Of a stretch of 64,000 nt of DNA, positions 17,612-60,347 are shown one piece after another (position 1 is the first letter of the stretch; each line of letters opens with the position of its first letter). This DNA is from an uncultured Clostridia bacterium (lineage in GTDB: Bacteria; Acidobacteriota; Blastocatellia; UBA7656; JADIYM01): positions 13,725 through 77,724 of the forward strand of contig CAZXLQ010000001.1 of NCBI GenBank assembly GCA_964641945.1, read 5' to 3'. Both the position numbers and the translations under genes were made by a program. The notes beneath the pieces are model-generated. The model did not search any database. It was not told where the DNA came from and saw nothing but the letters and a program-made list of their open reading frames with translations.

Positions 17612-17639
17612 TTGACACGGTTTGAGACGGTGCTAGATT
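17612..17639 (+). promoter_or_regulatory. sigma70-like promoter TTGACA-N16-TAGATT, leaderless start at 17646
   Basis: sits in an unusually AT-rich 160-nt island (17486-17645) with GATACGA x2 direct repeat. Confidence 0.5.
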
Positions 17640-24682: not shown

Positions 24683-24891
24683 GAGCTGATATCGAACAGC
24701 TCGCCCTCAAGCTGGCCGACGAATGGCATCGCATGAGCACCTCCGATCGGCAGCTTCTCGTCCGTGCTAACCCACGAGTCGAGAAGCTGCTGTTCGACCT
24801 GCATACGCTCACACTTGGAGACCCGCGCCGATGCTACTGCTGTTCGGCACCGCACCACGACCCTCGCTGCCCAGCCTATCGGCGCACATGA
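24679..24891 (+). CDS. hypothetical protein
   Basis: GTGA overlap; 70 aa. Confidence 0.4.
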   Translation: MRADIEQLALKLADEWHRMSTSDRQLLVRANPRVEKLLFDLHTLTLGDPRRCYCCSAPHHDPRCPAYRRT

Positions 24892-24898
24892 AAGAGGC

Positions 24899-33073: not shown

Positions 33074-33591
33074 CAGCTCTTCCTCGGCGGCAGGTCGCTG
33101 ATGTCCACGTCGGATGCGGGTGGCAGATCGTCTCTGCGTCCAGGGACGTGCTTGTCATCCTGATGAGCATCGAGAGTCGAGTTCGGCATGACGCCTCCCA
33201 TCATCGTCTGGATGCGCTCCCCGGCCTTGTCGAGGAAGACCTCCGCTGCCTCTCCGAACTCAGCGCGCCTGTTGTCGCGAGCACGCTGGGCGATCGGCCT
33301 GAACTCATCGCCGCCGAGGCTGTCGTATGGACGGAGCATCTCCAGGCCGCAGCCGCTGCACGGGCCCGTGTAAGAACGAACATCGCCTCCGAGAGCTTCG
33401 ATCTCGTCCTTCTCGAAGCGGAGCGTTTTGTCCCATCCGCACTGGATGCAGACGAACCGACACTCGTCCGGCAGAGCCTCACCGGCGATTCGGCGAGCCA
33501 AGCGAGCGGCGTCTTCCTTCGACTTCAGCGCCAAAGCGGCGCCGGAGCTGGGAACGTCAGGACGGAACCCGGGAACGTCATCCTCGGCCAT
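33073..33591 (-). CDS. zinc-ribbon hypothetical protein
   Basis: CIQCGW..CSGCG. Confidence 0.5.
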   Translation of the reverse strand: MAEDDVPGFRPDVPSSGAALALKSKEDAARLARRIAGEALPDECRFVCIQCGWDKTLRFEKDEIEALGGDVRSYTGPCSGCGLEMLRPYDSLGGDEFRPIAQRARDNRRAEFGEAAEVFLDKAGERIQTMMGGVMPNSTLDAHQDDKHVPGRRDDLPPASDVDISDLPPRKS

Positions 33592-33784
33592 TCTTCTTCT
33601 CCTTCTTGGGCTCGAACTTCTCGATCAGGTAGTTCAGCACGGCCGAGATGTTCGGCTTGTTCTTGGCGTTCATCCACCCGCGCTCGCGCGCCAGCCCGAC
33701 GAGCTTCTCGAAGTTGGACACCGTCGAGCGAAACGACAGCCGAACGCTGTGGGTTTCTTCCTTCTCATCGGGCTCGGTCGACAT
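33578..33784 (-). CDS. small hypothetical protein
   Basis: 68 aa. Confidence 0.4.
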   Translation of the reverse strand: MSTEPDEKEETHSVRLSFRSTVSNFEKLVGLARERGWMNAKNKPNISAVLNYLIEKFEPKKEKKNGRG

Positions 33785-34077
33785 CAGAGCACCTTGCTCA
33801 TCGCCCGGACCATGAAGAGGTCCTCACCGCGAAGGTAGATCAGCGATGCCGCCGGACCTGCCGGAGTCGGCATCGTTGTCCTGAACTCCCAGACGTCGTC
33901 CGAGCCCAGCTCACGGAAGCTCTGCGCTGTGAACGCCACCAGGGTGTTCGCCGGCACGGACATCGCCTTGCCGTCCGGACCTTCGACCGTCGAGATGTTG
34001 AAGTCGCTCACCCTCGTGAGGATCTCGATCGGACCCTGACCGTTCAGGTTGCGCAACGCGATGCCCATCGACGCCAT
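33784..34077 (-). CDS. hypothetical protein
   Basis: 97 aa. Confidence 0.45.
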   Translation of the reverse strand: MASMGIALRNLNGQGPIEILTRVSDFNISTVEGPDGKAMSVPANTLVAFTAQSFRELGSDDVWEFRTTMPTPAGPAASLIYLRGEDLFMVRAMSKVL

Positions 34078-34078
34078 T

Positions 34079-35176
34079 TCAGCCTCCTTCGACCCATGTT
34101 CGGAGTTTCTCGACCCACTGCGGGAGCGCCCATTCCCAGGTGCCCCAGTTGCCCTGCTTCTCGAAGTCCATCGAGTTGCGAACCTGCATCGCGTGAACGT
34201 TGAGCCTGTTCAGGCCGCGATCCAGACAAGCTCCCAACAGTCCGACATCGATCACTGGTGCCATCCCGTTCTCGTACGCGAGAGGGGCGTCGAATGGAGA
34301 AGGGATGCACATCCATCGCCCCGGCCAATCGACGAGGAACTCTGCGTGCCCAGTGTTGCATGTCGTCAGCAAGGGAACACCGGCTACCAGCGCCCCGCTG
34401 ATCATCATGCCGTACCCCTCACAGCGAGACGGGGAGATCACGAGATCCGCTTCTTCGTAGAGCCGCGACAGCGACTCGTCCGACTCTCCGCGAGCTTCAC
34501 CACACCGGAACACCACGTCGTCGCTCAGGTCGTGGTCGGCGATCTTGTAGAGGACACCCTTTTGAAGGGCGCTTGGGCCATGGATGACGAGCTTTGCGTG
34601 CGGTCGCACGTGAGCCCAAGCCTCGATCAGCTCCTCGGTGCCCTTTCGCCCAGGCCAGGCGAAGTCACTGGTAAAATGGACCGCCGTGAGGCAAGGGCTG
34701 CCCTGAACGCACTGGGCCCTGAGCCAGCGCTGCTTGCTGTCCGAAGGGACCGGACTCCCGAGAGGAAGCACGCTGGCCACGAAGTCGCTGTTCTCGATGT
34801 CATCAAGCGCTCGCAGACAGAACCTCGATGGAGCGATGACCGTCCCGAACTTCGCGATCGTCGTCAGGTACTCCTTGTCCATCTCAGTCGTGTTGGGGCT
34901 GATGAAGATGGCCGACCGGTCCCTTCCTCTCTGCTCGGGGAAAGAGCTGAGGTAGTGGTGCGGCACGGCGATCACGAGAACATGCGTGCCGTCGCGCGGG
35001 TCCTCGGCGACGCTCCTCCACCGGTCATGAAGTGCCGGGTCAAGGTTGATCACCCGCCCGAGCATGCCCTCATGCCTCAGCGCCTCCGCGACGCGCCCGG
35101 CGACAGACGCGTAGGAGTGCATGGTGCCGAAGTGTCCGACGATGTCGATCACGCGAGCTTCCACTCCTTCACCCAC
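34079..35176 (-). CDS. GT4-type (GT-B) glycosyltransferase
   Basis: C-terminal EGYGMMISGALVAGVPLL (E-x7-E region). Confidence 0.75.
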   Translation of the reverse strand: MGEGVEARVIDIVGHFGTMHSYASVAGRVAEALRHEGMLGRVINLDPALHDRWRSVAEDPRDGTHVLVIAVPHHYLSSFPEQRGRDRSAIFISPNTTEMDKEYLTTIAKFGTVIAPSRFCLRALDDIENSDFVASVLPLGSPVPSDSKQRWLRAQCVQGSPCLTAVHFTSDFAWPGRKGTEELIEAWAHVRPHAKLVIHGPSALQKGVLYKIADHDLSDDVVFRCGEARGESDESLSRLYEEADLVISPSRCEGYGMMISGALVAGVPLLTTCNTGHAEFLVDWPGRWMCIPSPFDAPLAYENGMAPVIDVGLLGACLDRGLNRLNVHAMQVRNSMDFEKQGNWGTWEWALPQWVEKLRTWVEGG

Positions 35177-36510
35177 TCTTCAGGGACGATGCGGCTCAGC
35201 CCCGCCCTCACCGCCGGCAGGCAGCTCTCTGCGCTGAACATCTCACGGGTGGCCGAGGCTGCGGCGCGGTCGAGATACCGGCCTCGGTCGAACTGGGTCT
35301 GCATCCCTGCTGCCAGGTCGTCCAGCTTGTAGGTGCCCCACCGCGTTCGCTTGTCGAACATGAGAGCGATGCGAGCGACTTCTGGGCCGACCTCGGTGAG
35401 CTGGTAGGGGAAGGTGGTGTCTCGGGTCGATCCGGACTTCTGACGAATCTCCTCGACCATCTGCCCGACGGCACCGTAGGCGCTCGTGACCATCGGCACC
35501 CCCTGAGCTTTCGCCCAGACATGCGGAATGCCAAGGCCCTCCCCGTAGGACGGGTTCGCGTAGCAGTCCAAGTCGCCGAGCCACTCGATGACCTGCTGGT
35601 CCGTCTGGTCGGTCCCCAGCTCGAAGCCGATGCGAGGCATCTTTCCGGACATCGGAAACCCAGAGTCACCGAACTCTTTCGCGATCTCCGCGATCTCCGC
35701 CGTGAGCTTCTCCTTGAACTTCTTGATGGTGAGGTTTTCACCGAATGCGCTCGTCTTGAGGACGAGCTTCACCGGCTGCTCGCGAGCAAACGCCGAGAAG
35801 TAGGCTCGCACAAGATCGTGCATGCCCTTCCGCTTCTGCCACGTACCAAGCACGCCGAAGATGAATGGATCGTCATGCGTGACCGGCCGATTCTTCCGCT
35901 CAGCCAACACGTCGAGTGCCGTCATCGACCATGGCCCCTCCGTCAGCATCGGCCTGACCACGTGGACCACGCTTGCCGGAACGTTGGACTGGACGAAAGC
36001 GTCACGAACGAACTCGCTCACGACCCAGATGCCAGCAAAGACCGGACCGGTCGCGAGGCTCCGGCAGTAATCCGAGACCCGATCGCCCTCGAACGCGCAG
36101 TACGGGACGATCTTCGGCGCCATCTCCTCCATCTCCACGGCCACCTCGGGCGGCCACGAGCAGAACAGCGCCTTCGGATGCCCAACGCCTTCCTTCACCC
36201 ACTGGAAGAGCAGGTCGTATCGGTCGGGCGGAAAACGCTCGATGTCGATGTCCACATTGCGATGCGGCACCAGCGCCGTCGGGATCCCAAGCGACCGCGA
36301 GAGCATCCACTGTAGCGACAGCGCGTGCGTCGCGTACCCCGTACGATGATGGCTTCCCCACGTGTGCCAGAGCCCATGCACGTCGTACCCGGGAGCCGGC
36401 GGCGCGACGTAGTCGCGGAACTTCTGCCCCGTCGGACGCATCTGCGACGCAACCAGCGCCTCGAACTCTTCTGGCGTCCGATCCTTGTATTCCTGGTACT
36501 TGTCCGACAT
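35149..36510 (-). CDS. glycosyltransferase-like protein (GT-B, family 1/4-like)
   Basis: YGEGLGIPHVWAKAQGVPMVTSAYG. Confidence 0.6.
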   Translation of the reverse strand: MSDKYQEYKDRTPEEFEALVASQMRPTGQKFRDYVAPPAPGYDVHGLWHTWGSHHRTGYATHALSLQWMLSRSLGIPTALVPHRNVDIDIERFPPDRYDLLFQWVKEGVGHPKALFCSWPPEVAVEMEEMAPKIVPYCAFEGDRVSDYCRSLATGPVFAGIWVVSEFVRDAFVQSNVPASVVHVVRPMLTEGPWSMTALDVLAERKNRPVTHDDPFIFGVLGTWQKRKGMHDLVRAYFSAFAREQPVKLVLKTSAFGENLTIKKFKEKLTAEIAEIAKEFGDSGFPMSGKMPRIGFELGTDQTDQQVIEWLGDLDCYANPSYGEGLGIPHVWAKAQGVPMVTSAYGAVGQMVEEIRQKSGSTRDTTFPYQLTEVGPEVARIALMFDKRTRWGTYKLDDLAAGMQTQFDRGRYLDRAAASATREMFSAESCLPAVRAGLSRIVPEEWVKEWKLA

Positions 36511-40037: not shown

Positions 40038-40406
40038 CTAGGCGCCCAAGCGCTTGAGTGCCATCAGCGGCCTGACGGATCTCCGCAGCTTGTGAAGCGC
40101 ATTGATTGCCTTCGCGAGCTTCTGAGCTTCGTACGCGTTCCAGGTCTCACGACGACCCTTCTCATTCGCCCGCGAGCGAAACTCTGACAACCCAACGAGG
40201 AGCTTGTCGACGACAGGAAGCATCTCCGCGAACTCGTTCTTCGGTCGGTCCCACATGCTTTTGAACAAGTCGACCGTCCTCAACAACCCTTGCGCTGAAA
40301 CGCCGGACTGCTGCTGAGCGCGTACCAGAGCGATGCGAAGGTCGGAGCCGATCAGCCAACCCATCTCCCGGCAGATTGCCTTCTCTTCGTCCGACACGGT
40401 CATCAA
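40038..40406 (-). CDS. hypothetical protein
   Basis: 122 aa. Confidence 0.5.
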   Translation of the reverse strand: MMTVSDEEKAICREMGWLIGSDLRIALVRAQQQSGVSAQGLLRTVDLFKSMWDRPKNEFAEMLPVVDKLLVGLSEFRSRANEKGRRETWNAYEAQKLAKAINALHKLRRSVRPLMALKRLGA

Positions 40407-41089
40407 AGCCCTCGACGGCCGAAAGAACGCAGAACCGAAGCGATGCTCTCCAGCTTGGAGACGATTCGCAGCTCAGGCGCCAGCCTGTACATCAACTCAG
40501 GCTCAGTCGGCTCGGGCATGTAAACAACGAGTGGCCTGCCTCTCCCAGCGAACCACCCAGCTTCCAGATGAGCGCTCTTGCCGCAGTCGAGCACCAGGAC
40601 CACCGCATCAGCAGACCGCATGCCTTCGTAATCGGCATCAAACGCACGCTGGGCCGATGGATGCGTGAGCGCTTTCCCCAAGACCTCTGCGCTCCATGGC
40701 TTCGGCCCAGCAACGTCTACCCAGCGAAACCCAGACTCGTCGCTGCGAAAGTCGTAGACATCGAACCCATCAGCACGCAGCGCGCTGACCACCGCGGGCT
40801 GGTGGATGTTCTTCCACGAAGACGCAACGTATATGCTCTGCGGTGCGCGGCGCGTCTGATCGCTCAAGAGCGAGGCCAACCGTTGCGCACACGCTGAGCA
40901 CCCCGGAACGTTCATCTCGTAGAACGCAACGACCGCGTGAGCAGCCGACCCAAAGACCCTCTCACCCTTCTCCGGGACCCGACCGCACCACGTCAACGAC
41001 TGCAAAAAGCAGTGGTCCTCCAGCCCGCGCGTGATGGAGTCTGGTCCGCAGTCAGGCGGCAATCCTCGCAAGATGCAGAGAGGCCTCAC
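40403..41089 (-). CDS. hypothetical protein, possibly nucleoside 2-deoxyribosyltransferase-like (flavodoxin-like fold)
   Basis: IYVASSW..ADAVVLVLD..EAGWFAGRGRPLVV pattern; weak. Confidence 0.45.
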   Translation of the reverse strand: MRPLCILRGLPPDCGPDSITRGLEDHCFLQSLTWCGRVPEKGERVFGSAAHAVVAFYEMNVPGCSACAQRLASLLSDQTRRAPQSIYVASSWKNIHQPAVVSALRADGFDVYDFRSDESGFRWVDVAGPKPWSAEVLGKALTHPSAQRAFDADYEGMRSADAVVLVLDCGKSAHLEAGWFAGRGRPLVVYMPEPTEPELMYRLAPELRIVSKLESIASVLRSFGRRGL

Positions 41090-41988: not shown

Positions 41989-41997
41989 GGTGCGTCG

Positions 41998-42026
41998 AAT
42001 CTACGCACGACTGTCTGACAAGTCAA
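41998..42026 (-). promoter_or_regulatory. promoter TTGACT-N17-TAGATT with TGTCAGACAG operator in spacer, 9 nt before ATG 41988
   Basis: minus-sense gcgcTTGACTtgtcagacagtcgtgcgTAGATTcgacgcaccATG. Confidence 0.55.
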
Positions 42027-42080
42027 GCGCCGCGTGCTAGCGTGCGGCGAGCACTCTGAAAACCAAATAGAGGTAGTGGT

Positions 42081-42548
42081 TCGCAAGGGCTGCCCAGCGC
42101 CCTGAAGCTGATGACAGGTTGGGCCCCGACACGCCTCGCCCGCCGGGGGATATCGCAATGGCTGCCCAGCGCCCTAAAGCTGGTGACCGGGTGATGATAC
42201 GGCGACGCGTGCGACCTCCCTCGGGTCGCAAGGGCTGCCCAGCGCCCTGAAGCTGGTGACGGCCGCACGCTTGCTCACCGACTGCTCGGCCACGAGTCGC
42301 AAAGGCTGCCCAGCGCCCTGAAGCTGGTGACCTCGCGCCGCAGGGTGGACGCGCGCCCGAGGCGGACATCGCAAGGGCTGCCCAGCGCCCTGAAGCTGGT
42401 GACGTGTACGTGTGCGCGAGATCGGTGTCGCGCAGCACGTCGCAAGGGCTGCCCAGCGCCCTGAAGCTGGTGACGGAGCGACCTTTTCCCCCCACGAGAT
42501 CCTCGACCGTGCATCGCAAGGGCTGCCCAGCGCCCTGAAGCTGGTGAC
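42081..42548. CRISPR. CRISPR-like array: 7 repeats of about 35-36 nt, 6 unique spacers of 36-39 nt
   Basis: repeat (G/A)TCGCAAGGGCTGCCCAGCGCCCTGAAGCTGGTGAC starting at 42081, 42153, 42226, 42297, 42369, 42440 and 42514; repeats 1 and 2 carry point variants; internal hairpin GGGCTG/CAGCGCCC; no cas genes in window. Confidence 0.8.
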
Positions 42549-42656
42549 GTGTTGGCATGGCGACCAAAGACAACGGCCTCGACGGCTTTCGCCACCGAGG
42601 CCGCTGCCTCCACAACATGAAGGAGGTCACGTCAACCGCAGGACAAGACCGTACCA

Positions 42657-43148
42657 TCAGCGCACCGTCGCAGCAACCCACACGATTGCCGTCACGACGA
42701 CTCCGACAGCAAACCAGAGCGCCGGGTGCTCAAACCATGACCTCTCCGCTGCCGCTCGCGTCGCCTCTCTCGCCTCCACCAAAGCTGCCGTCAGCTCCGC
42801 CTGACGTGCCGTCCACAGGTCATCCCGAAGACGCAGACGTTCCTCACAGGCGCTGATCCTTGATCGCTCCATTTCCACACGCACGTCGCAGGTCTCGCGA
42901 TCTCGCTCGGTGGTGCGATCGAGCAGGTACCGCATGCGCTCATACTCTTGCTGGATCTGGAGCAGATCCGCCGCACCGATGAGCAGCCCGTCACGAGGAG
43001 CAGGCGCTCCACGACGCAGAGGAAGGATCTCCTCCGGCTCAGGAAGCCGCAGCTCTGTTGCTTCCGGAGTCTCCTGAGCCGCCGACCGGGCAGGGAGCAT
43101 CAGAAGCAAACTGAGGAGGAAGGATAGAGCGCGGGCCATGAGTAGCAT
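42657..43148 (-). CDS. secreted/membrane coiled-coil protein
   Basis: N-terminal signal-like LSFLLSLLLMLPARSAAQ, C-terminal TM ALWFAVGVVVTAIVWV. Confidence 0.5.
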   Translation of the reverse strand: MLLMARALSFLLSLLLMLPARSAAQETPEATELRLPEPEEILPLRRGAPAPRDGLLIGAADLLQIQQEYERMRYLLDRTTERDRETCDVRVEMERSRISACEERLRLRDDLWTARQAELTAALVEAREATRAAAERSWFEHPALWFAVGVVVTAIVWVAATVR

Positions 43149-43416: not shown

Positions 43417-43441
43417 GGTTCTTTCGACGGAGTCAACCAAG

Positions 43442-43512
43442 TTCGGGGAGAGGGACTCGAACCCCCGTGAACTGGACCAAGGCCAGTCGTCCTGCCGCTA
43501 GACGATCCCCGA
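43442..43512 (-). tRNA. tRNA (anticodon loop CCTTGGT; TTG, Gln-type, C33)
   Basis: acceptor 7/7, T-loop TTCGAGT. Confidence 0.6.
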
Positions 43513-43513
43513 G

Positions 43514-43584
43514 CGCAGCGTGCGGGAGTCGAACCCGCCTGGCGTCGGTGAAAGCGACGCGGCCTCCCGGAAGCCCAACGCTGC
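43514..43584 (-). tRNA. tRNA-Glu(TTC)
   Basis: acceptor 7/7 (43515-21 vs 43578-84), T-loop TTCGACT, loop CTTTCAC. Confidence 0.75.
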
Positions 43585-43597
43585 ATCATCCAGATAG

Positions 43598-43670
43598 AGC
43601 CCCGAGCCGGTCTCGAACCGGCGGCCCCCTGCTTACAAGGCAGGTGCTCTGCCAACTGAGCTATCGGGGC
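43598..43670 (-). tRNA. tRNA-Thr(TGT)
   Basis: acceptor 7/7, loop CTTGTAA. Confidence 0.75.
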
Positions 43671-43851
43671 GGTTTCGTTCTTCACGCCATCGGTCAAGAA
43701 TCGCAGCCGTCTCACGCGTCGCAACGAAAAGCCGCACGGAGAGGCACGACTCGCACTGCCTGTCGCCAGAGTACGACGGCAGGACCCCTTCGTGCCCAGT
43801 GCGACCACACTTCTCGCAGATCGAGTAGAACTCGTGCCAGTAGTCGATCAT
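43633..43851 (-). CDS. doubtful small Zn-binding ORF whose 3' end overlaps tRNA-Thr
   Basis: CEKCGRTGH..CESC; overlap with tRNA 43598-43670. Confidence 0.25.
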   Translation of the reverse strand: MIDYWHEFYSICEKCGRTGHEGVLPSYSGDRQCESCLSVRLFVATRETAAILDRWREERNRPDSSVGRAPAL

Positions 43852-43867
43852 TCGACGAACTGTATCA

Positions 43868-43940
43868 TGCCGGTTGCGGGAGTCGAACCCGCCTGCTCCG
43901 CTTTACGAGTGCGGTGCTCTCCCACGAGAGCGTAACCGGC
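43868..43940 (-). tRNA. tRNA-Thr(CGT)
   Basis: acceptor 7/7, loop CTCGTAA. Confidence 0.7.
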
Positions 43941-43977
43941 GTATACTGCATGCGATGAGGCCCACCGCGACAGAACG

Positions 43978-44166
43978 ATGCGAATGATCTCAACGGCGAG
44001 AACGAGTCTGCTCGACGCTCAGTACGCGCTCGGAGCGATCTCCCGCTACTCACCCGAGGCCGCCGCGCTCCACAAGATCATCGTCGAGACCCGGAAGACC
44101 GTCGAGCGAATGCGTGTCGTCGACGCGCAAACCATCTCGCCCAACAAGAGGCGGAAGCGGCGCTGA
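43978..44166 (+). CDS. doubtful small ORF between tRNAs
   Basis: 62 aa. Confidence 0.3.
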   Translation: MRMISTARTSLLDAQYALGAISRYSPEAAALHKIIVETRKTVERMRVVDAQTISPNKRRKRR

Positions 44167-44239
44167 CGTCCCGTACGCGAATCGAACGCGTGTTTCCAGG
44201 TTGAGGGCCTGGCGACTTGAGCCGCTGGTCGAACGGGAC
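44166..44239 (-). tRNA. tRNA (anticodon loop CCCTCAA; CTC, Glu-type, C33)
   Basis: acceptor 7/7, T-loop TTCGATT. Confidence 0.55.
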
Positions 44240-44560
44240 ATCACGGAGACCGGAAGGCTCGAACTCCAACGCCTTGCGACGTCGCACCGGGTAGCGGCCG
44301 GGCCCAGCACCACCTGCTGGTTCAGTCTCCAAGCGGAAGAAGGAGGTCACGATCCCCAACGCCTTGCGACGCCGCTCCGCTTTCGAGGCGGACCCGGTCC
44401 CCGACCGGTTCTTCTTCCAAGCGGAGAGCGGAGGTCCTGACCCTCAGCGCCTTGCGACGCCGCAACCGCTTCCAACGGTACCCGAGCCCCGCTCGGTTCG
44501 CTCTCCATGGAGAAGTGGGGGCACGATCCCCAGCGCCGAAACGCCCATCGGTGTTCAAAG
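44240..44560. repeat. three or four degenerate ~90-nt tandem units with palindromic core CTTGCGACG(Y)CGC and tRNA-fragment-like GGTCACGATCCCC
   Basis: cores at about 44266, 44356, 44444; partial copy at about 44520. Confidence 0.6.
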
Positions 44561-44942
44561 CCGTGTCGAGCCCAGCTCGATTCCTTCTCCAGTCGGTGAT
44601 CCGTTCGAGTCCGGCGTCTACACACCTGAGTTACCAGCCCAGGACGCCTCAGCAGAAGTCGATTGTTCGGTCACGATCCTCCGCCGCCTGGCCGGGCGAC
44701 TTCAACGGACCGGAGGGACTCTACCCCCAAGGCGCAAAGCACTGGTTCATGATTTTCGCGCCAACCGCATTGACCAAGGGCCAGGAACCTCGCCGACCGG
44801 CGCCCAAGGTCTCACGTACCGTATCTTCCTCTGCTGTACGACACACCCGATTCCCCGAAGCGCTGCCTTGCCCGCCGTGCCAGCGTGCGTCTTCAGCCAT
44901 GGGTAGAAACCGGACTCGAACGGATCACTTACATTCTCACCT

Positions 44943-45455
44943 TCACGCAGCCTTGCCGAAGTAGGGCCGCCATGCCTCAGGGACAGCCCTGAGATCGAAC
45001 TTCTTGGGAACCACCGGAAGCCAGACAGGCTTCTTCGGCTGCCTGAGCAGCTTCATCTTCGCCTCCTCCGGCGTCCGGTTGCCCTTCTTCGAGTTGCACG
45101 GATAGCAAGCCGCGACGATGTTGTCCCATTCCGTACGACCACCTCGCGAGCGAGGGATGACGTGGTCGTAGTTCAGCTCGTGCGCCTCGAAGTCACCGCC
45201 GCAGTATTGACACTGGTGCCCGTCGCGGAGCAGCACGTTCGCGCGAGAGAACTTGATCGACACCTTCTTTCCGCGAGCCTTCCGCACCATACGGATGATC
45301 GACGGCATGTGCATCGCGACCGACGGGGAGCGGATCACCTCCGACGTCGCCTCCACGACCTCTGCCTTTTCGTCGTAGAGCAGGCAGATCGCCCGCTCCC
45401 AGGAGACGATCCGACTTGGTTGGTAGAACGAATCGAGGACGAGTACGCGCTGCAT
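44943..45455 (-). CDS. HNH endonuclease
   Basis: DGHQCQYCGG..YDHVIPRSRGG..WDNIVAACYPCNSKKGN. Confidence 0.75.
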   Translation of the reverse strand: MQRVLVLDSFYQPSRIVSWERAICLLYDEKAEVVEATSEVIRSPSVAMHMPSIIRMVRKARGKKVSIKFSRANVLLRDGHQCQYCGGDFEAHELNYDHVIPRSRGGRTEWDNIVAACYPCNSKKGNRTPEEAKMKLLRQPKKPVWLPVVPKKFDLRAVPEAWRPYFGKAA

Positions 45456-45472
45456 GATCTGGCTCCGTGATC

Positions 45473-45545
45473 TGCGGACCGTCGGAGTCGAACCGACACT
45501 GAGCGGTGTTTGAAGCCGCTGCCTCTGCCGTTGGGCTACGTCCGC
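45473..45545 (-). tRNA. tRNA (anticodon loop TTCAAAC; CAA on a short-variable-arm scaffold, identity unclear)
   Basis: T-loop TTCGACT, acceptor 6/7. Confidence 0.5.
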
Positions 45546-45559
45546 GTTGAGGTTGGTCG

Positions 45560-45587
45560 ATAGTAAGGTTCGTGTCTGACAAGTCAA
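45560..45587 (-). promoter_or_regulatory. promoter TTGACT-N16-TACTAT with TGTCAGACA in spacer, upstream of tRNA 45473-45545
   Basis: minus-sense cttcTTGACTtgtcagacacgaacctTACTATcgacc. Confidence 0.5.
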
Positions 45588-45594
45588 GAAGCGA

Positions 45595-45668
45595 TGCGCG
45601 AGGACGGATTTGAACCGACACTTGCTAGGTTCTTAGCCTAGTGCCTCTGCCAGTTGGGCTACCCGCGC
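45595..45668 (-). tRNA. tRNA (anticodon loop CTAAGAA; identity unclear)
   Basis: T-loop TTCAAAT, acceptor pairs with one G-U. Confidence 0.5.
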
Positions 45669-45670
45669 GT

Positions 45671-45744
45671 TGCCGACGAGTGGATTTGAACCACCACTGG
45701 GTACGGTCTGAACGTACTGCCTCTGCCAGTTGGGCTACATCGGC
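45671..45744 (-). tRNA. tRNA (anticodon loop TTCAGAC; CAG on a short-variable-arm scaffold)
   Basis: T-loop TTCAAAT, acceptor pairs with one G-U. Confidence 0.5.
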
Positions 45745-45750
45745 GTGGAG

Positions 45751-45824
45751 ATGCACGACCAGAGATCGAACTCTGCTGGGGCGACGTGTGAGATCGCTGC
45801 CGTCTCCAGACGGCTCGTCGTGCA
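45751..45824 (-). tRNA. tRNA-Val(CAC)
   Basis: acceptor 7/7; imperfect T-stem; loop CTCACAC. Confidence 0.6.
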
Positions 45825-45924
45825 GGTTCAGATCGTCATCCGTGTCGCGCACACCTCGGCCGTGGCCACGGCCGCCGGACTCCTAGCCGGGACTGATGAC
45901 GATCCGGTTCGGTCCGCGGACCGA

Positions 45925-45996
45925 TCGGGCTGGCCGGACTCGAACCGGCAACTACTCCGCCCCGAACGGAGTGGGGTACCTTTCCCCTACAGCCCG
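45925..45996 (-). tRNA. tRNA-Pro(CGG)
   Basis: acceptor 7/7, T-loop TTCGAGT, loop TTCGGGG. Confidence 0.75.
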
Positions 45997-46077
45997 GAAG
46001 TCTGGGTGGCCGGTTCCGCCCCGGCGGCCTCGTGCTCCCCGAGCACGCGCTCTGCTTGCTGAGCTACACCCAGATGA

Positions 46078-46148
46078 TCGCAGCGGCGAGAATCGAACTC
46101 GCTCTGCCCGCGTATGAAACGGGTCCTCGGCCATCGAGGATCGCTGCG
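46078..46148 (-). tRNA. tRNA-Met(CAT) (Met/fMet/Ile2 not distinguished)
   Basis: acceptor 7/7, loop TTCATAC. Confidence 0.7.
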
Positions 46149-46231
46149 TTGGTTTGCGGCCCCCGGAGTCGCGCCGGGTTGGCAAGGGGTATGAGCCCAA
46201 GCTGGTATCTCCACCTGCGCCGCACAAGACA

Positions 46232-46303
46232 CGCTGTCGGGTTGACTCGAACAACCATCTCCGACTTCGGACGTCGGGATCCTATCCTTTGGACTACGAC
46301 AGC
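46232..46303 (-). tRNA. tRNA-Arg(CCG)
   Basis: acceptor 7/7, loop GTCCGAA. Confidence 0.75.
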
Positions 46304-46779
46304 TTTTTCCACGAAAGCGGGACAAGTAGCCCGTGGTCCATCTCCCAGTGGCAGTTGCGACACAGGATCGCCACGTTGTCCTCCGCGTTGACCTCTGAGA
46401 GCGAAGCGCTCTCGCTGAACCCCGAGATTGGCTTGATATGGCAGAACTCGACATGCTTCGAGTACCCACAGTTCTCACACACTCTTGCACGGTGAGCGTT
46501 TGATTCGCGGCAGTGAGTCCGTACCAGCGAGTGTCGCCACGGCCCATCCTTGGAACGCTGAAGTTCTCCCAACGTGCGCTCACGCGACTTGTCCACAGAG
46601 ATGCACGCGATGCACTTCTGCCTCCTGGACCGCTCTACCTGCACTCCGCAAGCGCTACATGCCGGACGCGGGTTTCGCTTTCTCTTGACGGTCTCCCTGT
46701 TTGTCATGCGCGCGGAGCAGGTGCGAGAGCAAAACCTTGGGTTCTCCGTCTCCTGGCCGCACGTGGCACACTTGACCAT
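46294..46779 (-). CDS. HNH endonuclease
   Basis: C-terminal CHIKPISGF..NVAILCRNCHWEMDHG; N-terminal Cys clusters; start at MVKCATCG. Confidence 0.75.
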   Translation of the reverse strand: MVKCATCGQETENPRFCSRTCSARMTNRETVKRKRNPRPACSACGVQVERSRRQKCIACISVDKSRERTLGELQRSKDGPWRHSLVRTHCRESNAHRARVCENCGYSKHVEFCHIKPISGFSESASLSEVNAEDNVAILCRNCHWEMDHGLLVPLSWKKLS

Positions 46780-46789
46780 GACGCGTGGC

Positions 46790-46817
46790 AATCTAGCCAC
46801 CCACTGTCTGACAGTCA
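46790..46817 (-). promoter_or_regulatory. promoter TTGACT-N16-TAGATT with TGTCAGACAG in spacer, 10 nt before HNH ATG 46779
   Basis: minus-sense gcgTTGACTgtcagacagtggtggcTAGATTgccacgcgtcATG. Confidence 0.55.
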
Positions 46818-46892
46818 ACGCCCACGGAGGGACTTGAACCCCCACGAGACCCAGGTTCGTAGCCTGGCGCTCTATCCATTGAGCTACGCGGG
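46818..46892 (-). tRNA. tRNA-Arg(ACG)
   Basis: loop CTACGAA, acceptor pairs with one G-U. Confidence 0.7.
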
Positions 46893-46899
46893 CAGAAGA

Positions 46900-46974
46900 C
46901 CGCGACCGGAGGGAGTCGAACCCACATCGATCCATTACGGTTCACTCGTTTAGAAAACGAGACCGGTACGGTCG
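46900..46974 (-). tRNA. tRNA (anticodon undetermined)
   Basis: canonical T-arm, acceptor 7/7 (46901-07 vs 46968-74); internal arms ambiguous. Confidence 0.5.
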
Positions 46975-47481
46975 CCCAGATGTAGCCAGGCCATGGGCCT
47001 TCGCCCACTTTCTGACAGCGTTATCCGACACGCCGAACATCTCACCGAGCGCGACCCACGAGTGCGTCTCCAACAACTTCTCAAGCTCCTCCTTCTCTGG
47101 TCGCTTCGCGATTCGCGAAGCCATAGCGGAGCATTCGTACGAGCAAAAACGCGCGTTGAACGTCTGGCGTCCGCATCGCTCGCACGTGGACGATTCGCGA
47201 GGCCCGTAGCGCTCCATATTGTGCGCGGCCACATGCTGCCTGTGATCCATGACCTCCAAGTTCTCTGGACGGTTGTCGTCCTTCAGCTCGTTCTTGTGAT
47301 GGACGCTTTCGGATGGCAGTACCCAGCGGCCGATCGTGATCGATGCGACGTGACGATGGACGTAAACCTTCCCCTGACTGTTTGCGAGCGGGTGAGATTT
47401 ATCCAGAAAGTACATGTACCCGAGCGTCTTGTCCTTCTTCGGCGGCTTTGCGCAAGGATCCCAACTGTACTCTTGGTCCAT
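46942..47481 (-). CDS. HNH endonuclease (HNH_3-like) with C-terminal HTH
   Basis: HHKNELKDDNRPENLEVMDHRQH; 3' end overlaps tRNA 46900-46974. Confidence 0.75.
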   Translation of the reverse strand: MDQEYSWDPCAKPPKKDKTLGYMYFLDKSHPLANSQGKVYVHRHVASITIGRWVLPSESVHHKNELKDDNRPENLEVMDHRQHVAAHNMERYGPRESSTCERCGRQTFNARFCSYECSAMASRIAKRPEKEELEKLLETHSWVALGEMFGVSDNAVRKWAKAHGLATSGRPYRSRFLNE

Positions 47482-47515
47482 GTTTTTGGCCTAGAATGTT
47501 GAGGTTCGAATGTCA

Positions 47516-47583
47516 AGGACCGACCGCGAATCGAACGCGGCTTCGACGGGTTGCAATCGTCGGTCTTCCCAGAAGACCGGTCC
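47516..47583 (-). tRNA. tRNA-Cys(GCA), tentative, compact D-arm
   Basis: T-loop TTCGATT, loop TTGCAAC, acceptor 6/7. Confidence 0.45.
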
Positions 47584-47588
47584 AGAAA

Positions 47589-47659
47589 AGCGGGCGGCGA
47601 GAATCGAACTCGCTTGGCTGGGTTGGAAGCCCAGAGCCTAACCAGTCGGCCACGCCCGC
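47589..47659 (-). tRNA. tRNA-Gly(TCC)
   Basis: acceptor 7/7, loop CTTCCAA. Confidence 0.75.
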
Positions 47660-47822
47660 ATAGCCGGCGCAGGAGAAAGGCGGCTCCCTACGCCCACACC
47701 GTCATCGACGGCTCGGTCCTGCGACCGAGCGCTCCGCCCAACGCAGAGCCCCCGACCGGCATCGCACCGGCACCATCGTCCATACCAAGGACGCGTTCTT
47801 CTTCTTGAACTTCGGGGGCACA

Positions 47823-47895
47823 TGGACCTGGAGGGCTCCGCCCCCTCCGCCTCCTGCTTGCAAGGCAGGCGCTCTCCTGAATGAGCTACAGGCCC
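47823..47895 (-). tRNA. tRNA-Ala(TGC) with G3:U70, non-canonical T-loop GGCGGAG
   Basis: anticodon arm cctgc/TTGCAAG/gcagg, D-arm gctc..gagc, acceptor GGGCCUG with G3-U70. Confidence 0.55.
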
Positions 47896-47898
47896 AGA

Positions 47899-47970
47899 TC
47901 GTCGCGCCGGGTTCCGCCCCCGGGGCCTCCTGCGTGTCGAGCAGGCCTCTTCTGACTGAGCTACGCGACG
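47899..47970 (-). tRNA. tRNA-Val(GAC)-like, non-canonical T-loop GGCGGAA, C33
   Basis: acceptor 7/7 (47900-06 vs 47964-70). Confidence 0.5.
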
Positions 47971-47974
47971 AGAA

Positions 47975-48050
47975 CTCCCGCGGTGGGAATCGAACCCACG
48001 CCATCGTGCCCACGGCACCTTGTTGGGAAACGCGCTTCCCTAGCGACCAG
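47975..48050 (-). tRNA. tRNA-like element: canonical 3' half, 5' end unresolved
   Basis: T-arm gtggg/AATCGAA/cccac; only 7/7 acceptor partner lies 210 nt away at 48185-48191. Confidence 0.3.
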
Positions 48051-48191
48051 GGATCTCCTTGCCATTCGGTGCATCCGCAACCCGCGGTGCCTACCCACAC
48101 CCCGAGGACAGCCCCAAGTAGCAGGCGGCCCGATGCCTTTTACGGTGATCGGCTCCGTTTTTCCGACGTTCTGCCTCTGAACTACGCGGGA

Positions 48192-48264
48192 TGGAGCAGT
48201 CGGGGATCGAACCCGCCACAGCCCGCGTATCAGACGGGCCAGGACAACCAGTCACTTCCGCTCC
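48192..48264 (-). tRNA. tRNA-Ile(GAT)
   Basis: loop CTGATAC; acceptor pairs with one G-U. Confidence 0.7.
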
Positions 48265-48268
48265 GAAG

Positions 48269-48343
48269 CATCCCCAGCGCGACTCGAACACGCGACCTGA
48301 TCTTTAGGAAAGATCTGCTCTGATCCAACTGAGCTATGGGGAC
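48269..48343 (-). tRNA. tRNA-Arg(CCT)
   Basis: loop TTCCTAA; D-arm gctc/gagc. Confidence 0.7.
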
Positions 48344-48426
48344 ACGATCTGGTAGACGGGACCTGCCCCCGCTTGACCTGGAGCCACAATCCAGGGCCTC
48401 GACTACTTCGGCCTCTACCAGCATGA

Positions 48427-48497
48427 GAGCGGATGGGGAGAATCGAACTCCCAGAGTCGCGCTGGCAACGCGACCGCCTCACCATCGGCAACATCCG
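48427..48497 (-). tRNA. tRNA-Gly(GCC)
   Basis: acceptor 7/7, loop TTGCCAG. Confidence 0.75.
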
Positions 48498-48501
48498 CAA
48501 C

Positions 48502-48574
48502 ATGGACCTCAGCGGGGTCGAACCGCTGACCTCCTCGATGCCATCGAGGCGCTCTCCCAACTGAGCTAGAGGCC
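48502..48574 (-). tRNA. tRNA-Ala(GGC) with G3:U70
   Basis: loop ATGGCAT; acceptor GGGCCUC with G3-U70. Confidence 0.7.
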
Positions 48575-48638
48575 CGAAGAAGATCCGACGAACCGAAACT
48601 GCTCGGTGGTTGGGGATTGTTGGTGCGCCGGACCTTCA

Positions 48639-48710
48639 TCTGGGTGACTGGAATCGAACCAGCCGAGACGAGCACCCAAAGCTCGTGCCGCACCTTGCGG
48701 CTCCACCCAG
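48639..48710 (-). tRNA. tRNA-Pro(TGG)
   Basis: acceptor 7/7, loop TTTGGGT. Confidence 0.7.
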
Positions 48711-48714
48711 GGAC

Positions 48715-48788
48715 CGCCTCGTAGGGGGATTGAACCCCTCTCGACACCGCTCGACAAGCGGCCGGCGTCCCCAGACGCCTCACGAGGC
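48715..48788 (-). tRNA. tRNA-Asp(GTC)
   Basis: acceptor 7/7, T-loop TTCAATC, loop TTGTCGA. Confidence 0.7.
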
Positions 48789-48816
48789 ATTGGCGCGGCG
48801 AATCGTCGACGCGCGA

Positions 48817-48889
48817 TGGGACGTCTCGGAGTCGAACCGAGTTCTGTGGATCTTCAGGCCACCGCAATGACCGCACTTGCTCACGTCCC
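48817..48889 (-). tRNA. tRNA-Phe(GAA)
   Basis: acceptor 7/7, loop CTGAAGA. Confidence 0.7.
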
Positions 48890-48931
48890 AAGCGGGAAAC
48901 GCAGAGGCGCAAGCGTCTCCACGTGACCCCA

Positions 48932-49003
48932 CAGGCCGTGCAGGAGTCGAACCATGCTCGACGACGGATTTGGAGTCCGTCCGGCTGCCTCAGCCTACGG
49001 CCT
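48932..49003 (-). tRNA. tRNA-Trp(CCA)
   Basis: acceptor 7/7, loop CTCCAAA, imperfect T-stem. Confidence 0.65.
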
Positions 49004-49007
49004 GTAG

Positions 49008-49081
49008 CTCCAGGGGTCGGTGACGATCCGACAAGCACTCCGGTAACAGCGGAGCGGCTAGCCAACTTTGCCTTCCCTGGA
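49008..49081 (-). tRNA. tRNA-Asn(GTT), atypical T-loop ATCGTCA
   Basis: acceptor 7/7, loop CTGTTAC. Confidence 0.6.
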
Positions 49082-49139
49082 ATAGCGGACGCCCTCACGG
49101 ACGCCCGCGCTCTACTTCTTCAGTTTTCAGAGAGCCGAG

Positions 49140-49210
49140 TTCCGGCGCCAGGAATCGAACCTAGATTTTCGCGTTCAGAGCGCGACGGCCTGCCGTTAGC
49201 CGAAACCGGA
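49140..49210 (-). tRNA. tRNA-Gln(CTG)
   Basis: loop CTCTGAA, acceptor 6/7. Confidence 0.65.
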
Positions 49211-49281
49211 TGGGCTGCCAGGGAATCGAACCCTGCACGGCCTGAGTAAGAATCAGGTCCCTCCCTTGAGGGGTGCAGCCC
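49211..49281 (-). tRNA. tRNA-Lys(CTT)
   Basis: acceptor 7/7, loop TTCTTAC. Confidence 0.7.
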
Positions 49282-49660
49282 GCTGCTTCGATCTGGTCTT
49301 TCTGCTTTGCGCGGCGCTCGCCGCCCTGCATTCGTCACACCTGCGTCCGTGCCGGTACATCGCGAACGTTCCGTGCTTGCGAAGTTCGCGACCGAGATCC
49401 TCCTTGACCGTCTTCTCTGTGTGACATCGAGAGCAAAGAAGCTGACAGAGCTTCAGCTCCTTCATGAAGCGAGACATGCCGCAGCCGTACATTCGACTGA
49501 ATGGCATGGTCTTTTTCTTTCGATCGATATGATCCACCTCCAGACCATCAACACTGTCACAGCGAGCGCACTTGCCGCCCAGAACAGCAATCGCCAACTC
49601 GCGCCGCTCGTGGTAGCGACGCTTCATGTAGACCCTCATGTGTGCCGCGTTACTCGACAT
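49253..49660 (-). CDS. HNH endonuclease
   Basis: LEVDHIDRKK..CQLLCSRCH; 3' end overlaps tRNA-Lys. Confidence 0.75.
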   Translation of the reverse strand: MSSNAAHMRVYMKRRYHERRELAIAVLGGKCARCDSVDGLEVDHIDRKKKTMPFSRMYGCGMSRFMKELKLCQLLCSRCHTEKTVKEDLGRELRKHGTFAMYRHGRRCDECRAASAAQSRKTRSKQRAAPLKGGT

Positions 49661-49686
49661 CGTCCTTGGGAGCGAGAGGAGTCGAA

Positions 49687-49758
49687 CCTCCGCAGTCCGG
49701 AGTAAAGGTCCGGTGTCCAGCCATCAGACGCCGCTCCCGCGTTCACGCGGCAGCGCGT
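49687..49758 (-). tRNA. tRNA-Lys(TTT)-like (C33)
   Basis: acceptor 7/7, loop CCTTTAC. Confidence 0.55.
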
Positions 49759-49940
49759 TTCTCCTCTCTCTTCTCGCCGACACCGCGGACCGTGCGGCGA
49801 TCCGCGTCGGACATGACCCGCCAGAGCCCGTCCAGCTCGTCCTGAAGACGATCGACCTCGTCCTCTCCACCACGCAGATGCGCCTGCCTGAGGCGCTCCC
49901 GCGCCCGCTTGTACCTCTCGACGATGTGATGGGTGCTCAT
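49743..49940 (-). CDS. doubtful small ORF between tRNAs
   Basis: 65 aa. Confidence 0.3.
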   Translation of the reverse strand: MSTHHIVERYKRARERLRQAHLRGGEDEVDRLQDELDGLWRVMSDADRRTVRGVGEKREEKRAAA

Positions 49941-49960
49941 GATCTTGTTCCTGTTGCTGT

Positions 49961-50041
49961 TGGAGCCGCTTGGAATCGAACCAAGTCTCCCCGGAGGGAG
50001 CGGATTTACAGTCCGCCTGCGACACCAGCCGCATCGACTCC
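49961..50041 (-). tRNA. tRNA-Tyr(GTA), class II with variable-arm hairpin
   Basis: loop CTGTAAA, variable stem ctccc/gggag, acceptor pairs with one G-U. Confidence 0.7.
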
Positions 50042-50249: not shown

Positions 50250-51700
50250 CTACTCATGCCAGATGTCCGACAGGCCGTCAAGCGAAAAAGTGATCGTTCT
50301 TTCGACCCACACTTCCCTACGAATCGTCGGGGCTCTCGATCGGCGCTCGTCGGGTCGGACCCTCCAGTTTGCCATCCGGACCACATTCTTCTTGTAGGAC
50401 TTCGGGCACTGGGGTCATCCCTCTTCGGGCCGCTCAGGTCGCTGCACAACCGACCCGAGCGAGCACCACGCTCGTACCGAGCGCCTTCACATTCTGAGCC
50501 GCGTTCACGTCACGGTCCACCACGTATCCGCACGGGCAGCGGTGCTCACGGACGCTCAGGTCCTTGGGCACCACGATTCCGCACCGGCTACAGCGCTGGC
50601 TCGTGCCGCGAGCATCGACCGCCACACACCACTTGCCGGCACTCTCAGCCTTGCAAGCTACGGCATGCACCAGCGTGCTCCACGCAGCATCCGTCACCGA
50701 CTTGGCCAGCACACCAGCCGCCAAGCCCTTCACGTTCAAGTCTTCGACTGCGATGACGTCATACTTCGCCACCAACACGCACGCGAGCTTGCGTGCGAAG
50801 TCGAGCCGTTGCTGCCGCACGTGGGCATGCGCCTTGGCCACGAGCCGCTGAGCGACCCTGGCCCCCTGCGTGGACTTCTGCCCGCGGCGCCGTCGCCGCG
50901 CCAGGCGCTGTTGGCGCATGGCCAACTGGTCTTCGGCCTTTCGGAAGAACCGCGGCGCGGCGATGGTCTCGCTGTCGCTCGTCGCCACCAGCGACGTAAG
51001 CCCCACGTCGATTCCGACCACGCTCTGAGCGGCCTCGGCTGCCGGCACCTTTGGTGGTGCGGCGCCCAGGTCGCAACTGAAGCACACGAACCAGCGGCCG
51101 GTCGCTTCGCGGCGGACGGTAACGTTGCGGATGGCACCCGTGAGCGACCGGTACTCGTGGAACCGCACCAGGCCGAGCTTGGGGATACGGACGTGCGCCG
51201 AGCGCGTGCCGCGCTGAGCGGCGACCGGCGCAACTCGGCCGACCTCGAAGCTGTCGTAGCGAGAAAGCGACCGGAAGCGAGGGTAGCCCGGCTTCTGGCC
51301 CGCCTTCACGCGGCGGAAGAACGCCTGGAAGGCGCGATCGCAGCGACGGAGCGCCGAACGTTCGACCTCGACGGGGATGCTGGCGATGATCTCGTCGGAA
51401 GACCGGAGCGAGGTCAGCTCGGCGGTTTGGCTGTTGTAGGTCACGATCGGCGCGGGCTTGCGCTCGACGCCGCGATCGGTGGCCGCCTGCCGCTGGCGCT
51501 TCTCGTGCTCCCACGCGTCTCGCCGGTGCTGGAGCGCGGCGTTGTAGAGCTGCTGGCAGGTCCGCAGCCAAGAACCGAGCGTGGTCTCCTGGGCGACGGT
51601 CGGATGTAGCGGGTAGCGGAAGGTGCGGAGCAAGAGGGGTATGGTGTGAAGGGCAAAGTCAAATGTCAAATGCCTCCACTACCCGGACTCGCACAGGCGA
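50250..51700 (-). mobile_element. IS200/IS605-family TnpB-only element (IS1341-like remnant; ends not defined)
   Basis: tnpB with no tnpA; expected omegaRNA region downstream of tnpB 3' end at about 50250-50480. Confidence 0.45.
50434..51669 (-). CDS. tnpB: TnpB (OrfB) RuvC-like transposon-associated nuclease
   Basis: N-terminal RTFRYPLHPT..QLYNAAL; C-terminal zinc finger CSRCG..CPCGYVVDRDVNAAQN. Confidence 0.85.
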   Translation of the reverse strand: MTFDFALHTIPLLLRTFRYPLHPTVAQETTLGSWLRTCQQLYNAALQHRRDAWEHEKRQRQAATDRGVERKPAPIVTYNSQTAELTSLRSSDEIIASIPVEVERSALRRCDRAFQAFFRRVKAGQKPGYPRFRSLSRYDSFEVGRVAPVAAQRGTRSAHVRIPKLGLVRFHEYRSLTGAIRNVTVRREATGRWFVCFSCDLGAAPPKVPAAEAAQSVVGIDVGLTSLVATSDSETIAAPRFFRKAEDQLAMRQQRLARRRRRGQKSTQGARVAQRLVAKAHAHVRQQRLDFARKLACVLVAKYDVIAVEDLNVKGLAAGVLAKSVTDAAWSTLVHAVACKAESAGKWCVAVDARGTSQRCSRCGIVVPKDLSVREHRCPCGYVVDRDVNAAQNVKALGTSVVLARVGCAAT

Positions 51701-60346: not shown

Positions 60347-60347
60347 G

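Follow-up and report, generated by a model that had tools for sequence, protein, structure and literature searches.

The 64-kb stretch of DNA analyzed here (positions 13,725 to 77,724 of contig CAZXLQ010000001.1; referred to as the window) carries an array of seven 36-nt direct repeats and six unique spacers at positions 42080 to 42548. We consider it somewhat better than an even bet that this is a cas-less clustered regularly interspaced short palindromic repeat (CRISPR) array on an uncultivated large phage, transcribed from the plus strand, processed at a hairpin near the 3′ end of each repeat, and served by Cas proteins supplied in trans. The case is built on the anatomy of the array, covariation in the stem of the repeat, a leader duplication followed by unrelated spacers in a related phage, the conserved position of the array in a close variant of the phage, the foreign composition of the spacers, and the lack of nearby cas genes.

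The array was found where the initial annotation had placed it, and its repeats recur with a period of 71 to 74 nt. The copies read (A/G/T)TCGCAAGGGCTGCCCAGCGCCCTGAAGCTGGTGAC, with ATCGCAAGGGCTGCCCAGCGCCCTGAAGCTGGTGAC as the consensus unit, and each agrees with the consensus at 34 to 36 of the 36 positions. The array is genuine and beyond chance; the window has seven copies of the 17-nt 3′ core of the repeat, compared to 0.28 expected. The spacers are 35 to 38 nt long, and their mutual pairwise identity is 0.45 compared to 0.50 for random 36-mers. The window array thus has the near-identical direct repeats of ∼23 to 55 nt and the unique, repeat-sized spacers of narrow length range that define a CRISPR array. 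The latter feature is not shared by the related L002 array described below. Point variants had been thought to be confined to the two repeats at the low-coordinate end, but they sit in R1, R2, and R4 (G8A in R4), and position 1 is variable throughout the array. A translated repeat protein, already excluded in the initial annotation, was also ruled out here. The array periods modulo 3 are 0, 1, 2, 0, 2, and 2, so that no reading frame is kept, and a 214-amino-acid (aa) minus-strand open reading frame (ORF) at 42037 to 42681 reads the repeat in all three frames and is an artifact. The leader, the array, and the hairpin that follows it are arranged as follows.

41989 to 42079, plus strand: leader, 91 nt, intergenic, bounded by repeat 1 and by the divergent minus-strand core gene, whose start codon is at 41988
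42015 to 42043, plus strand: putative promoter-like site CTGACA-17-TAGCGT reading into the array, from a motif scan
42080 to 42115, plus strand: repeat 1 (begins with TT; closing base pair of the stem lost through G32A; 60.1 bits)
42116 to 42151, plus strand: spacer 1 (36 nt, 78% GC)
42152 to 42187, plus strand: repeat 2 (G8T, G25A)
42188 to 42224, plus strand: spacer 2 (37 nt)
42225 to 42260, plus strand: repeat 3
42261 to 42295, plus strand: spacer 3 (35 nt)
42296 to 42331, plus strand: repeat 4 (G8A)
42332 to 42367, plus strand: spacer 4 (36 nt, 83% GC)
42368 to 42403, plus strand: repeat 5 (consensus; 64.5 bits)
42404 to 42438, plus strand: spacer 5 (35 nt)
42439 to 42474, plus strand: repeat 6
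42475 to 42512, plus strand: spacer 6 (38 nt)
42513 to 42548, plus strand: repeat 7 (consensus)
42567 to 42610, no strand assigned: strong terminator-like hairpin (∼20 bp on the minus strand, 8 + 3 bp on the plus strand), flanked by repeat 7 and by the stop codon of the convergent gene at 42657 to 43148

Analysis of the repeat showed a 5-bp stem near its 3′ end, in which positions 15 to 19 pair with positions 28 to 32 (CCAGC/GCTGG). Among 13 distinct unit variants, 98.5% of the cells were paired. The stem takes the forms CCAGC/GCTGG, CCGGT/ACCGG, and TCGGT/ACCGA, with changes on both sides at three of the five pairs, and controls in which the stem was slid collapsed. The 8-nt loop, GCCCTGAA, is nearly invariant (R2 has an A at loop position G25), and 4 nt lie between the stem and the spacer. 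This covariation supports the CCAGC/GCTGG stem and, with it, the structured repeat expected of a CRISPR array. By comparison, the hairpin named in the initial annotation, GGGCTG/CAGCGCCC, would have a 2-nt loop, is sterically implausible, and gained no support from covariation. A second possible stem, AGGGC/GCCCT (positions 7 to 11 and 20 to 24), was weak, with one compensatory change and with one pair broken in 6 of the 13 variants; if formed, it would make a pseudoknot. Single-sequence folding of the repeat was uninformative (z-scores near 0).

Relatives of the array were sought by an exact 22-mer scan of the GTDB species-representative genomes and by degenerate scans of IMG/VR and of JGI metagenomes, the last with a stem-free repeat pattern, GCAANRGCYRCNNNNNGCYCTGAANNNNNNGAC. 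The exact scan yielded one real relative, L002, a 3.9-kb phage-like contig binned with a Bifidobacteriaceae metagenome-assembled genome. It has seven units, spacers of 12 to 41 nt, and two interleaved stem variants. The degenerate scans yielded only one further genome, a 297,749-bp IMG/VR viral contig (referred to as the 298-kb phage), which has two arrays of ATCGCAATGGCTGCCCGGTGCCCTGAAACCGGTGAC with five and three repeats and spacers of 37 to 39 nt. A helicase, an integrase, a phosphoesterase, and other proteins of this phage have counterparts in the window (30 to 75% identity), and judged by these proteins the window phage is related to it; its arrays occupy gene neighborhoods unlike that of the window array. 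The leader and first repeat are also present at the same position in a variant of the window phage whose neighboring protein is 91% identical; there, the leader differs by a few substitutions and a 3-nt insertion. More distant relatives of the array-adjacent gene have no array beside that gene, and when 437 kb of related sequence was searched with a covariance model of the unit, neither solitary nor diverged copies turned up. Single-copy matches to the degenerate pattern in metagenomes (L006 to L034, including L027 and L028) were discarded as chance; they lie in coding sequence and scored only 15 bits with the model. So far, the repeat family appears to be limited to a single clade of uncultured large phages. 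Convergent genes flank three of the four arrays.

On the L002 contig, a LAGLIDADG-type homing endonuclease ORF (372 to 1580), a 91-aa ORF, and the irregular hairpin array make up an insertion of ∼2.2 kb (207 to 2448). It lies between two conserved genes that are separated by only ∼170 nt in the relatives L064 and L065. The gene downstream of the insertion probably encodes a major structural protein, because its identity is 65 to 98% across more than 200 homologues.

The strongest single argument for CRISPR-type acquisition comes from the 298-kb phage. Both of its arrays are preceded, on the GCAA side, by a 228-nt duplication that is 98% identical and of which ∼198 nt is leader. The first ∼30 nt of the duplication is the 3′ end of the helicase gene, which means that array 2 arose by duplication of the leader region of array 1. 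The two arrays have identical repeats and a near-identical leader region and yet have zero spacers in common. Unrelated spacers behind a duplicated leader indicate spacer insertion, a hallmark of CRISPR adaptation, and different spacers behind the same leader and repeat are thus found in this phage. The comparison covers the arrays of the 298-kb phage; the short-read Logan contigs of the window phage all break at the first perfect repeat. The leader common to both arrays also holds two copies of CGGACCCGCTCGCAA (L017, 8577 to 8591 and 8680 to 8694), whose 3′ end resembles the 5′ end of the repeat (TCGCAA). This sequence could be a protein-binding or integration-related motif.

The same duplication bears on the orientation of the array. 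According to the initial annotation, the leader would be at the 42549 side and the array would be transcribed from the minus strand. However, a leader duplicated on the GCAA side makes GCAA...GTGAC the likely functional strand, corresponding to the plus strand of the window and to a leader at 41989 to 42079. Several other observations also oppose a minus-strand call. First, the promoter-like part of the 298-kb phage leader aligns to 42009 to 42068 of the window, in the low-coordinate flank, with CTGACA-17-TAGCGT of the window opposite TGGACG-16-TAGAGT of the 298-kb phage. Second, these boxes are identical in the variant phage, where adjacent leader bases differ. Third, the L002 units are codirectional with every gene of L002. 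Finally, the hairpin at 42567 to 42610 separates the array from the convergent minus-strand genes. The 112-nt segment with this hairpin had z-scores of −4.1 (minus strand) and −3.2 (plus strand), and 0 of 200 shuffles folded as well; the hairpin has no T-run, and its function as a terminator is putative. From these data we infer that the window array is transcribed from the plus strand.

Promoter-like sites of the form TTGACn-17-TAGnnT were also seen at 16510 to 16538, 17612 to 17639, and 41998 to 42026, ending 7 to 10 nt before start codons. Such spacing suggests leaderless transcripts of the actinobacterial type and is a hint at the host clade. As a phage-wide consensus, the strict promoter motif is anecdotal, since only 5 sites were found compared to 1.4 expected.

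The spacers of the window array are 72.4% GC compared to 61.9% for the window background (P = 5e-5 by resampling). This means that they look foreign and may come from a higher-GC source. The GC content of the 298-kb phage spacers is not significantly different from that of their background, and in L002 the short spacers are at background level.

No cas gene was found with the array, in agreement with the initial annotation, which had described it as standing alone in 64 kb. Scans of ∼50 window ORFs with Pfam, PHROG, or PADLOC, together with precomputed Pfam annotations of overlapping contigs, gave no Cas1, Cas2, Cas4, Cas6, or effector in the window, within the sensitivity of the profile libraries used. 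Neither the window array nor the arrays of its relatives have the adjacent cas genes of a CRISPR-Cas locus. Two candidate partners were rejected. The 776-aa ORF beside array 1 of the 298-kb phage, considered as a Cas effector, is a UvrD-type helicase with an intein, and the other ORFs flanking the arrays of this phage encode sugar-modification enzymes or have no assigned function. The 300-aa gene divergent from the window array, considered as an array-specific partner, is a clade-wide core gene with more than 130 homologues, and a homologue on the 298-kb phage gave no match within the array loci. The UvrD-type helicase of the 298-kb phage (L004, 5211 to 7541) has a LAGLIDADG intein; the window orthologue (24764 to 26929, 721 aa) has none.

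In the model we favor, the array would be its own small plus-strand transcription unit, with a promoter at ∼42015 to 42043 in the 91-nt leader, then the repeats and spacers, and then the hairpin at 42567 to 42610. Each repeat in the transcript would fold into a 5-bp CCAGC/GCUGG stem with the 8-nt loop GCCCUGAA, followed by UGAC before the spacer. A Cas endoribonuclease or effector would recognize this hairpin and cut the transcript into guide RNAs. The Cas proteins would be supplied in trans, encoded either by the host or by a part of the phage genome outside the window. Supply in trans had already been proposed in the initial annotation and is still the best explanation. The GC-rich spacers would then direct Cas against foreign DNA of higher GC content, such as the host chromosome or competing mobile elements.

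A number of results weigh against this model. First, no Cas protein was found in the 64-kb window, in ∼10 kb further to the left, or in ∼5 kb further to the right, nor within 2.6 to 10 kb of either array of the 298-kb phage. Second, no cellular source of the repeat was found. It has no match in the Rfam CRISPR-DR families, even at E <= 10; plasmids and deposited phages gave only chance matches; the JGI metagenomes (stem-free pattern) and the GTDB species genomes (one exact 22-mer) gave only phage-type loci and no host array; and the repeat string was not found in the literature. Third, none of the 12 spacers has a protospacer in deposited phages, plasmids, or related loci, and two window spacer cores are absent from IMG/VR. 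A comparison with typed repeats (here the Rfam CRISPR-DR families) and a spacer search against phages and plasmids had both been suggested as checks in the initial annotation, and both came back empty. Fourth, the promoter call on the plus strand is confounded, because its boxes share sequence with the palindromic −35 region of the promoter that serves the divergent gene (41998 to 42026), and the degenerate repeats R1 and R2 are leader proximal, which is atypical for an array that is still acquiring spacers. Finally, the L002 spacers are irregular in length (12 to 41 nt) and of background GC content, and the stem variants of L002 are interleaved. This irregularity is not what a ruler-type adaptation machine would produce.

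The L002 array also suggests a different function. Its hairpin has been kept by compensatory changes, while its spacers are free in length and have the composition of the local background, which suggests selection on the repeat and not on the spacers. This is what would be seen if the transcribed hairpins were decoys that mimic host CRISPR repeats, soak up Cas6 or effector subunits, and so protect the phage, the spacers being mere filler. Like the solitary repeat units termed Racrs (PMC10651486), the window array is phage borne, has no cas genes, and lies behind a promoter-like site. Nevertheless, we regard a decoy as unlikely. The described Racrs are solitary and not arrays of seven repeats, and the covariance-model search of 437 kb turned up no solitary unit. 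In addition, spacer lengths are tightly regulated in the window array and in both arrays of the 298-kb phage, and the window spacers are compositionally foreign. A host repeat to be mimicked did not appear in the genome, metagenome, Rfam, or plasmid scans, and no recognizable acr or aca gene is adjacent, though small neighboring ORFs are unannotated.

It is likewise unlikely, but conceivable, that the array belongs to an RNA-guided or RNA-decoy system private to the phage and was not borrowed from a host. Such a system would work with a partner that current Cas profiles do not recognize, or with no Cas at all. This is suggested because the repeat family is confined to one phage clade and has no cas-linked counterpart. 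The L002 version may then have evolved into a repeat-only, multihairpin array that acts as a decoy or regulator and was inserted ahead of a highly conserved, structural-like gene.

Structured repeats of a non-CRISPR kind are decidedly unlikely. On this view, the units would be bound or processed by a phage protein, whether in an RNA element that lies between convergent transcription units or in DNA, as iterons or centromere-like sites. A period of 71 to 75 bp, about seven helical turns, is consistent with them, as are the lack of cas genes, typed repeat matches, and protospacers, the position of three of the four arrays between convergent genes, the restriction of the family to one phage clade, and the free spacing in L002. 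However, the two stem variants interleaved in one array are fully compensatory, which argues for a single-strand hairpin and not for a double-stranded DNA site bound by one protein. Unrelated, length-regulated spacers behind a duplicated leader are hard to square with divergence alone. The foreign composition of the window spacers and the absence of solitary units in the 437 kb also speak against such sites.

The idea that the array serves the TnpB nuclease encoded at 50434 to 51669, raised in the initial annotation, fared worse. In this case, the array would feed guides to TnpB as a split-guide intermediate between transposon and CRISPR systems. The intact 411-aa protein (minus strand) is the sole Cas-related protein of the window and its sole RuvC nuclease. 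The 298-kb phage has a truncated TnpB-like fragment 3.3 kb away from its array 2, and the repeat hairpin, four nucleotides from the spacer, may resemble type V handles. However, in a structural-sequence comparison with PDB entries, its best match was ISDra2 TnpB over near full length (E = 2.5e-36), whereas the CRISPR-linked relatives Cas12f, LaTranC, and Cas12m match only in the C-terminal part; by this comparison the nuclease is a canonical ISDra2-like TnpB. It lies 7.9 kb from the array, on the opposite strand and across 27 tRNA genes. The repeat is not significantly similar to the 3′ flank of TnpB, the best local alignment scoring 12, a score equaled by 12.5% of random segments, with the stem partner missing. 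Ten IMG/VR relatives of this TnpB have no interspaced arrays. Conversely, no TnpB lies near L002 or near array 1 of the 298-kb phage, and the arrays of the relatives occur without an intact TnpB. Arrays flagged near some TnpB relatives proved to be plain 90-nt and 12-nt tandem repeats. Since neither co-occurrence, scaffold similarity, nor structural-sequence affinity supports a link between TnpB and the array, we consider it highly improbable.

With respect to TnpB itself, the protein has HTH (helix-turn-helix), OrfB_IS605, and TNB domains, is solo (no TnpA), and occupies one and the same site in each of the eight public contigs in which it occurs. Between TnpB and the tRNA-Tyr gene lies ∼390 nt of structured noncoding sequence, which probably encodes its omega-RNA. 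The truncated ORF of the 298-kb phage (L017, 4812 to 5462; 216 aa; 3.3 kb upstream of array 2) keeps only RuvC-II, the zinc finger, and RuvC-III and adjoins an integrase homologue and a small ORF that is endonuclease VII-like by its sequence motifs.

That the window is ordinary host chromosomal CRISPR DNA with a cas operon just beyond its end is barely credible, even though the window is only part of a larger genome, given a neighborhood that is phage type throughout and related to an IMG/VR viral contig, an array-adjacent gene that is a core gene of a large-phage clade, the lack of cas genes in the ∼42 kb and ∼21 kb on either side of the array inside the window and in the extra flanks (where a cas-bearing array, allowed for in the initial annotation, did not appear), and the lack of adjacent cas genes at the arrays of the related phage.

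The phage-like neighborhood described in the initial annotation was also recovered. The window is 62% GC, and the genome extends past both of its ends. Exact-protein lookups found the same phage in several public sequencing runs, and there is no close relative among deposited or cultured phages. The sample accessions did not turn up in papers. A tRNA cluster occupies 43441 to 50041 on the minus strand, with 27 genes predicted by ARAGORN and one more by Rfam (47823 to 47895). HNH endonuclease genes lie among the tRNA genes at 44943 to 45587 and 46942 to 47481. The tRNA-Tyr (49961 to 50041) scored just over the Rfam tRNA-Sec threshold (49.5 compared to 47 bits), probably because of its long variable arm. 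An 88-nt tandem duplication at 44328 to 44499 (2.0 copies, 77% matches) overlaps tRNA-Ser(cga) at 44333 to 44418 and may include a decayed second tRNA copy. Other window genes encode a tyrosine integrase, a Dam-type methylase, SNF2 and UvrD helicases, glycosyltransferases, methyltransferases, and a muramidase. The minus strand at 31639 to 36510 and 40403 to 41089 carries methyltransferases, GT4 glycosyltransferases (one in the "GT4 in conflict systems" family), and a nucleoside 2-deoxyribosyltransferase-like gene that adjoins the array-adjacent core gene; this cluster may serve to modify DNA or the cell surface. Pentapeptide repeats are joined to a PcfJ-like domain in multiple paralogues, at least two of them in the window (116 to 1780 and 58952 to 60415), and three more PcfJ-like genes lie just left of the window (L043, 3285 to 10004).

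If our reading is correct, a previously uncatalogued repeat family joins the cas-less CRISPR arrays of large phages. The relative with two arrays and a duplicated leader region, the close variant with an array in the same position, and the irregular L002 provide comparative footholds, which make the family reasonably suited to testing how phages come by arrays, keep them, and use them when they have no cas genes of their own. They are also relevant to the question of whether cas-less arrays can degenerate into decoys made of repeats alone. The high GC content of the spacers is a hint that the target, whether host or competitor, is itself GC rich, and this could help identify the host of this orphan phage clade.

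Among known systems, the compact arrays of huge phages (>200 kb) offer one comparison (Al-Shayeb et al. 2020, PMC7162821; PMC11656645). The arrays encoded by phages are reported to be compact (median, six repeats), and there are huge phages that have them without interference and integration genes (PMC7162821, PMC11656645). The window array is alike in that it belongs to a large, tRNA-rich phage lineage without adjacent cas, has seven repeats compared to the median of six, holds unique spacers behind what is predicted to be a promoter-bearing leader, and has a 298-kb relative with more than one array per genome. It differs in that the published repeats resembled host repeats or a phage effector was present, whereas no host array, typed repeat, or effector was found here. 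Some published spacers also matched competing phages or host genes, whereas no protospacer was found here.

The virus-borne mini-CRISPR arrays (Medvedeva et al. 2019, PMC6858448) are likewise cas-less, with Cas presumed to act in trans and with different spacers in related viruses. However, they have one or two spacers, repeats identical to those of the host, and spacers most of which match related viruses. By comparison, the window array has six spacers, no host repeat was found for it, and none of its spacers matched the related phage sequences compared. Racrs (Camara-Wilpert et al. 2023, PMC10651486) are similar in that a phage-encoded, repeat-like hairpin lies behind a promoter (a putative one in the window) with no cas genes, and L002, which keeps the hairpin but not the spacer length, recalls them. 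However, they are single repeats, whereas the window holds a regular array with length-controlled spacers of foreign composition. With the TnpB-derived type V-U systems and transposon-CRISPR intermediates, the window has in common that one phage region holds both a CRISPR-like array and a small RuvC nuclease of TnpB/Cas12f descent. Here, however, the nuclease is not array adjacent, is nearest to a canonical transposon TnpB, and does not co-occur with arrays in relatives. The initial annotation had called the array unusual, but its category, a compact cas-less array on a large phage, has already been described (PMC7162821, PMC11656645), and the window array is a new example of that category and not a new kind of system.

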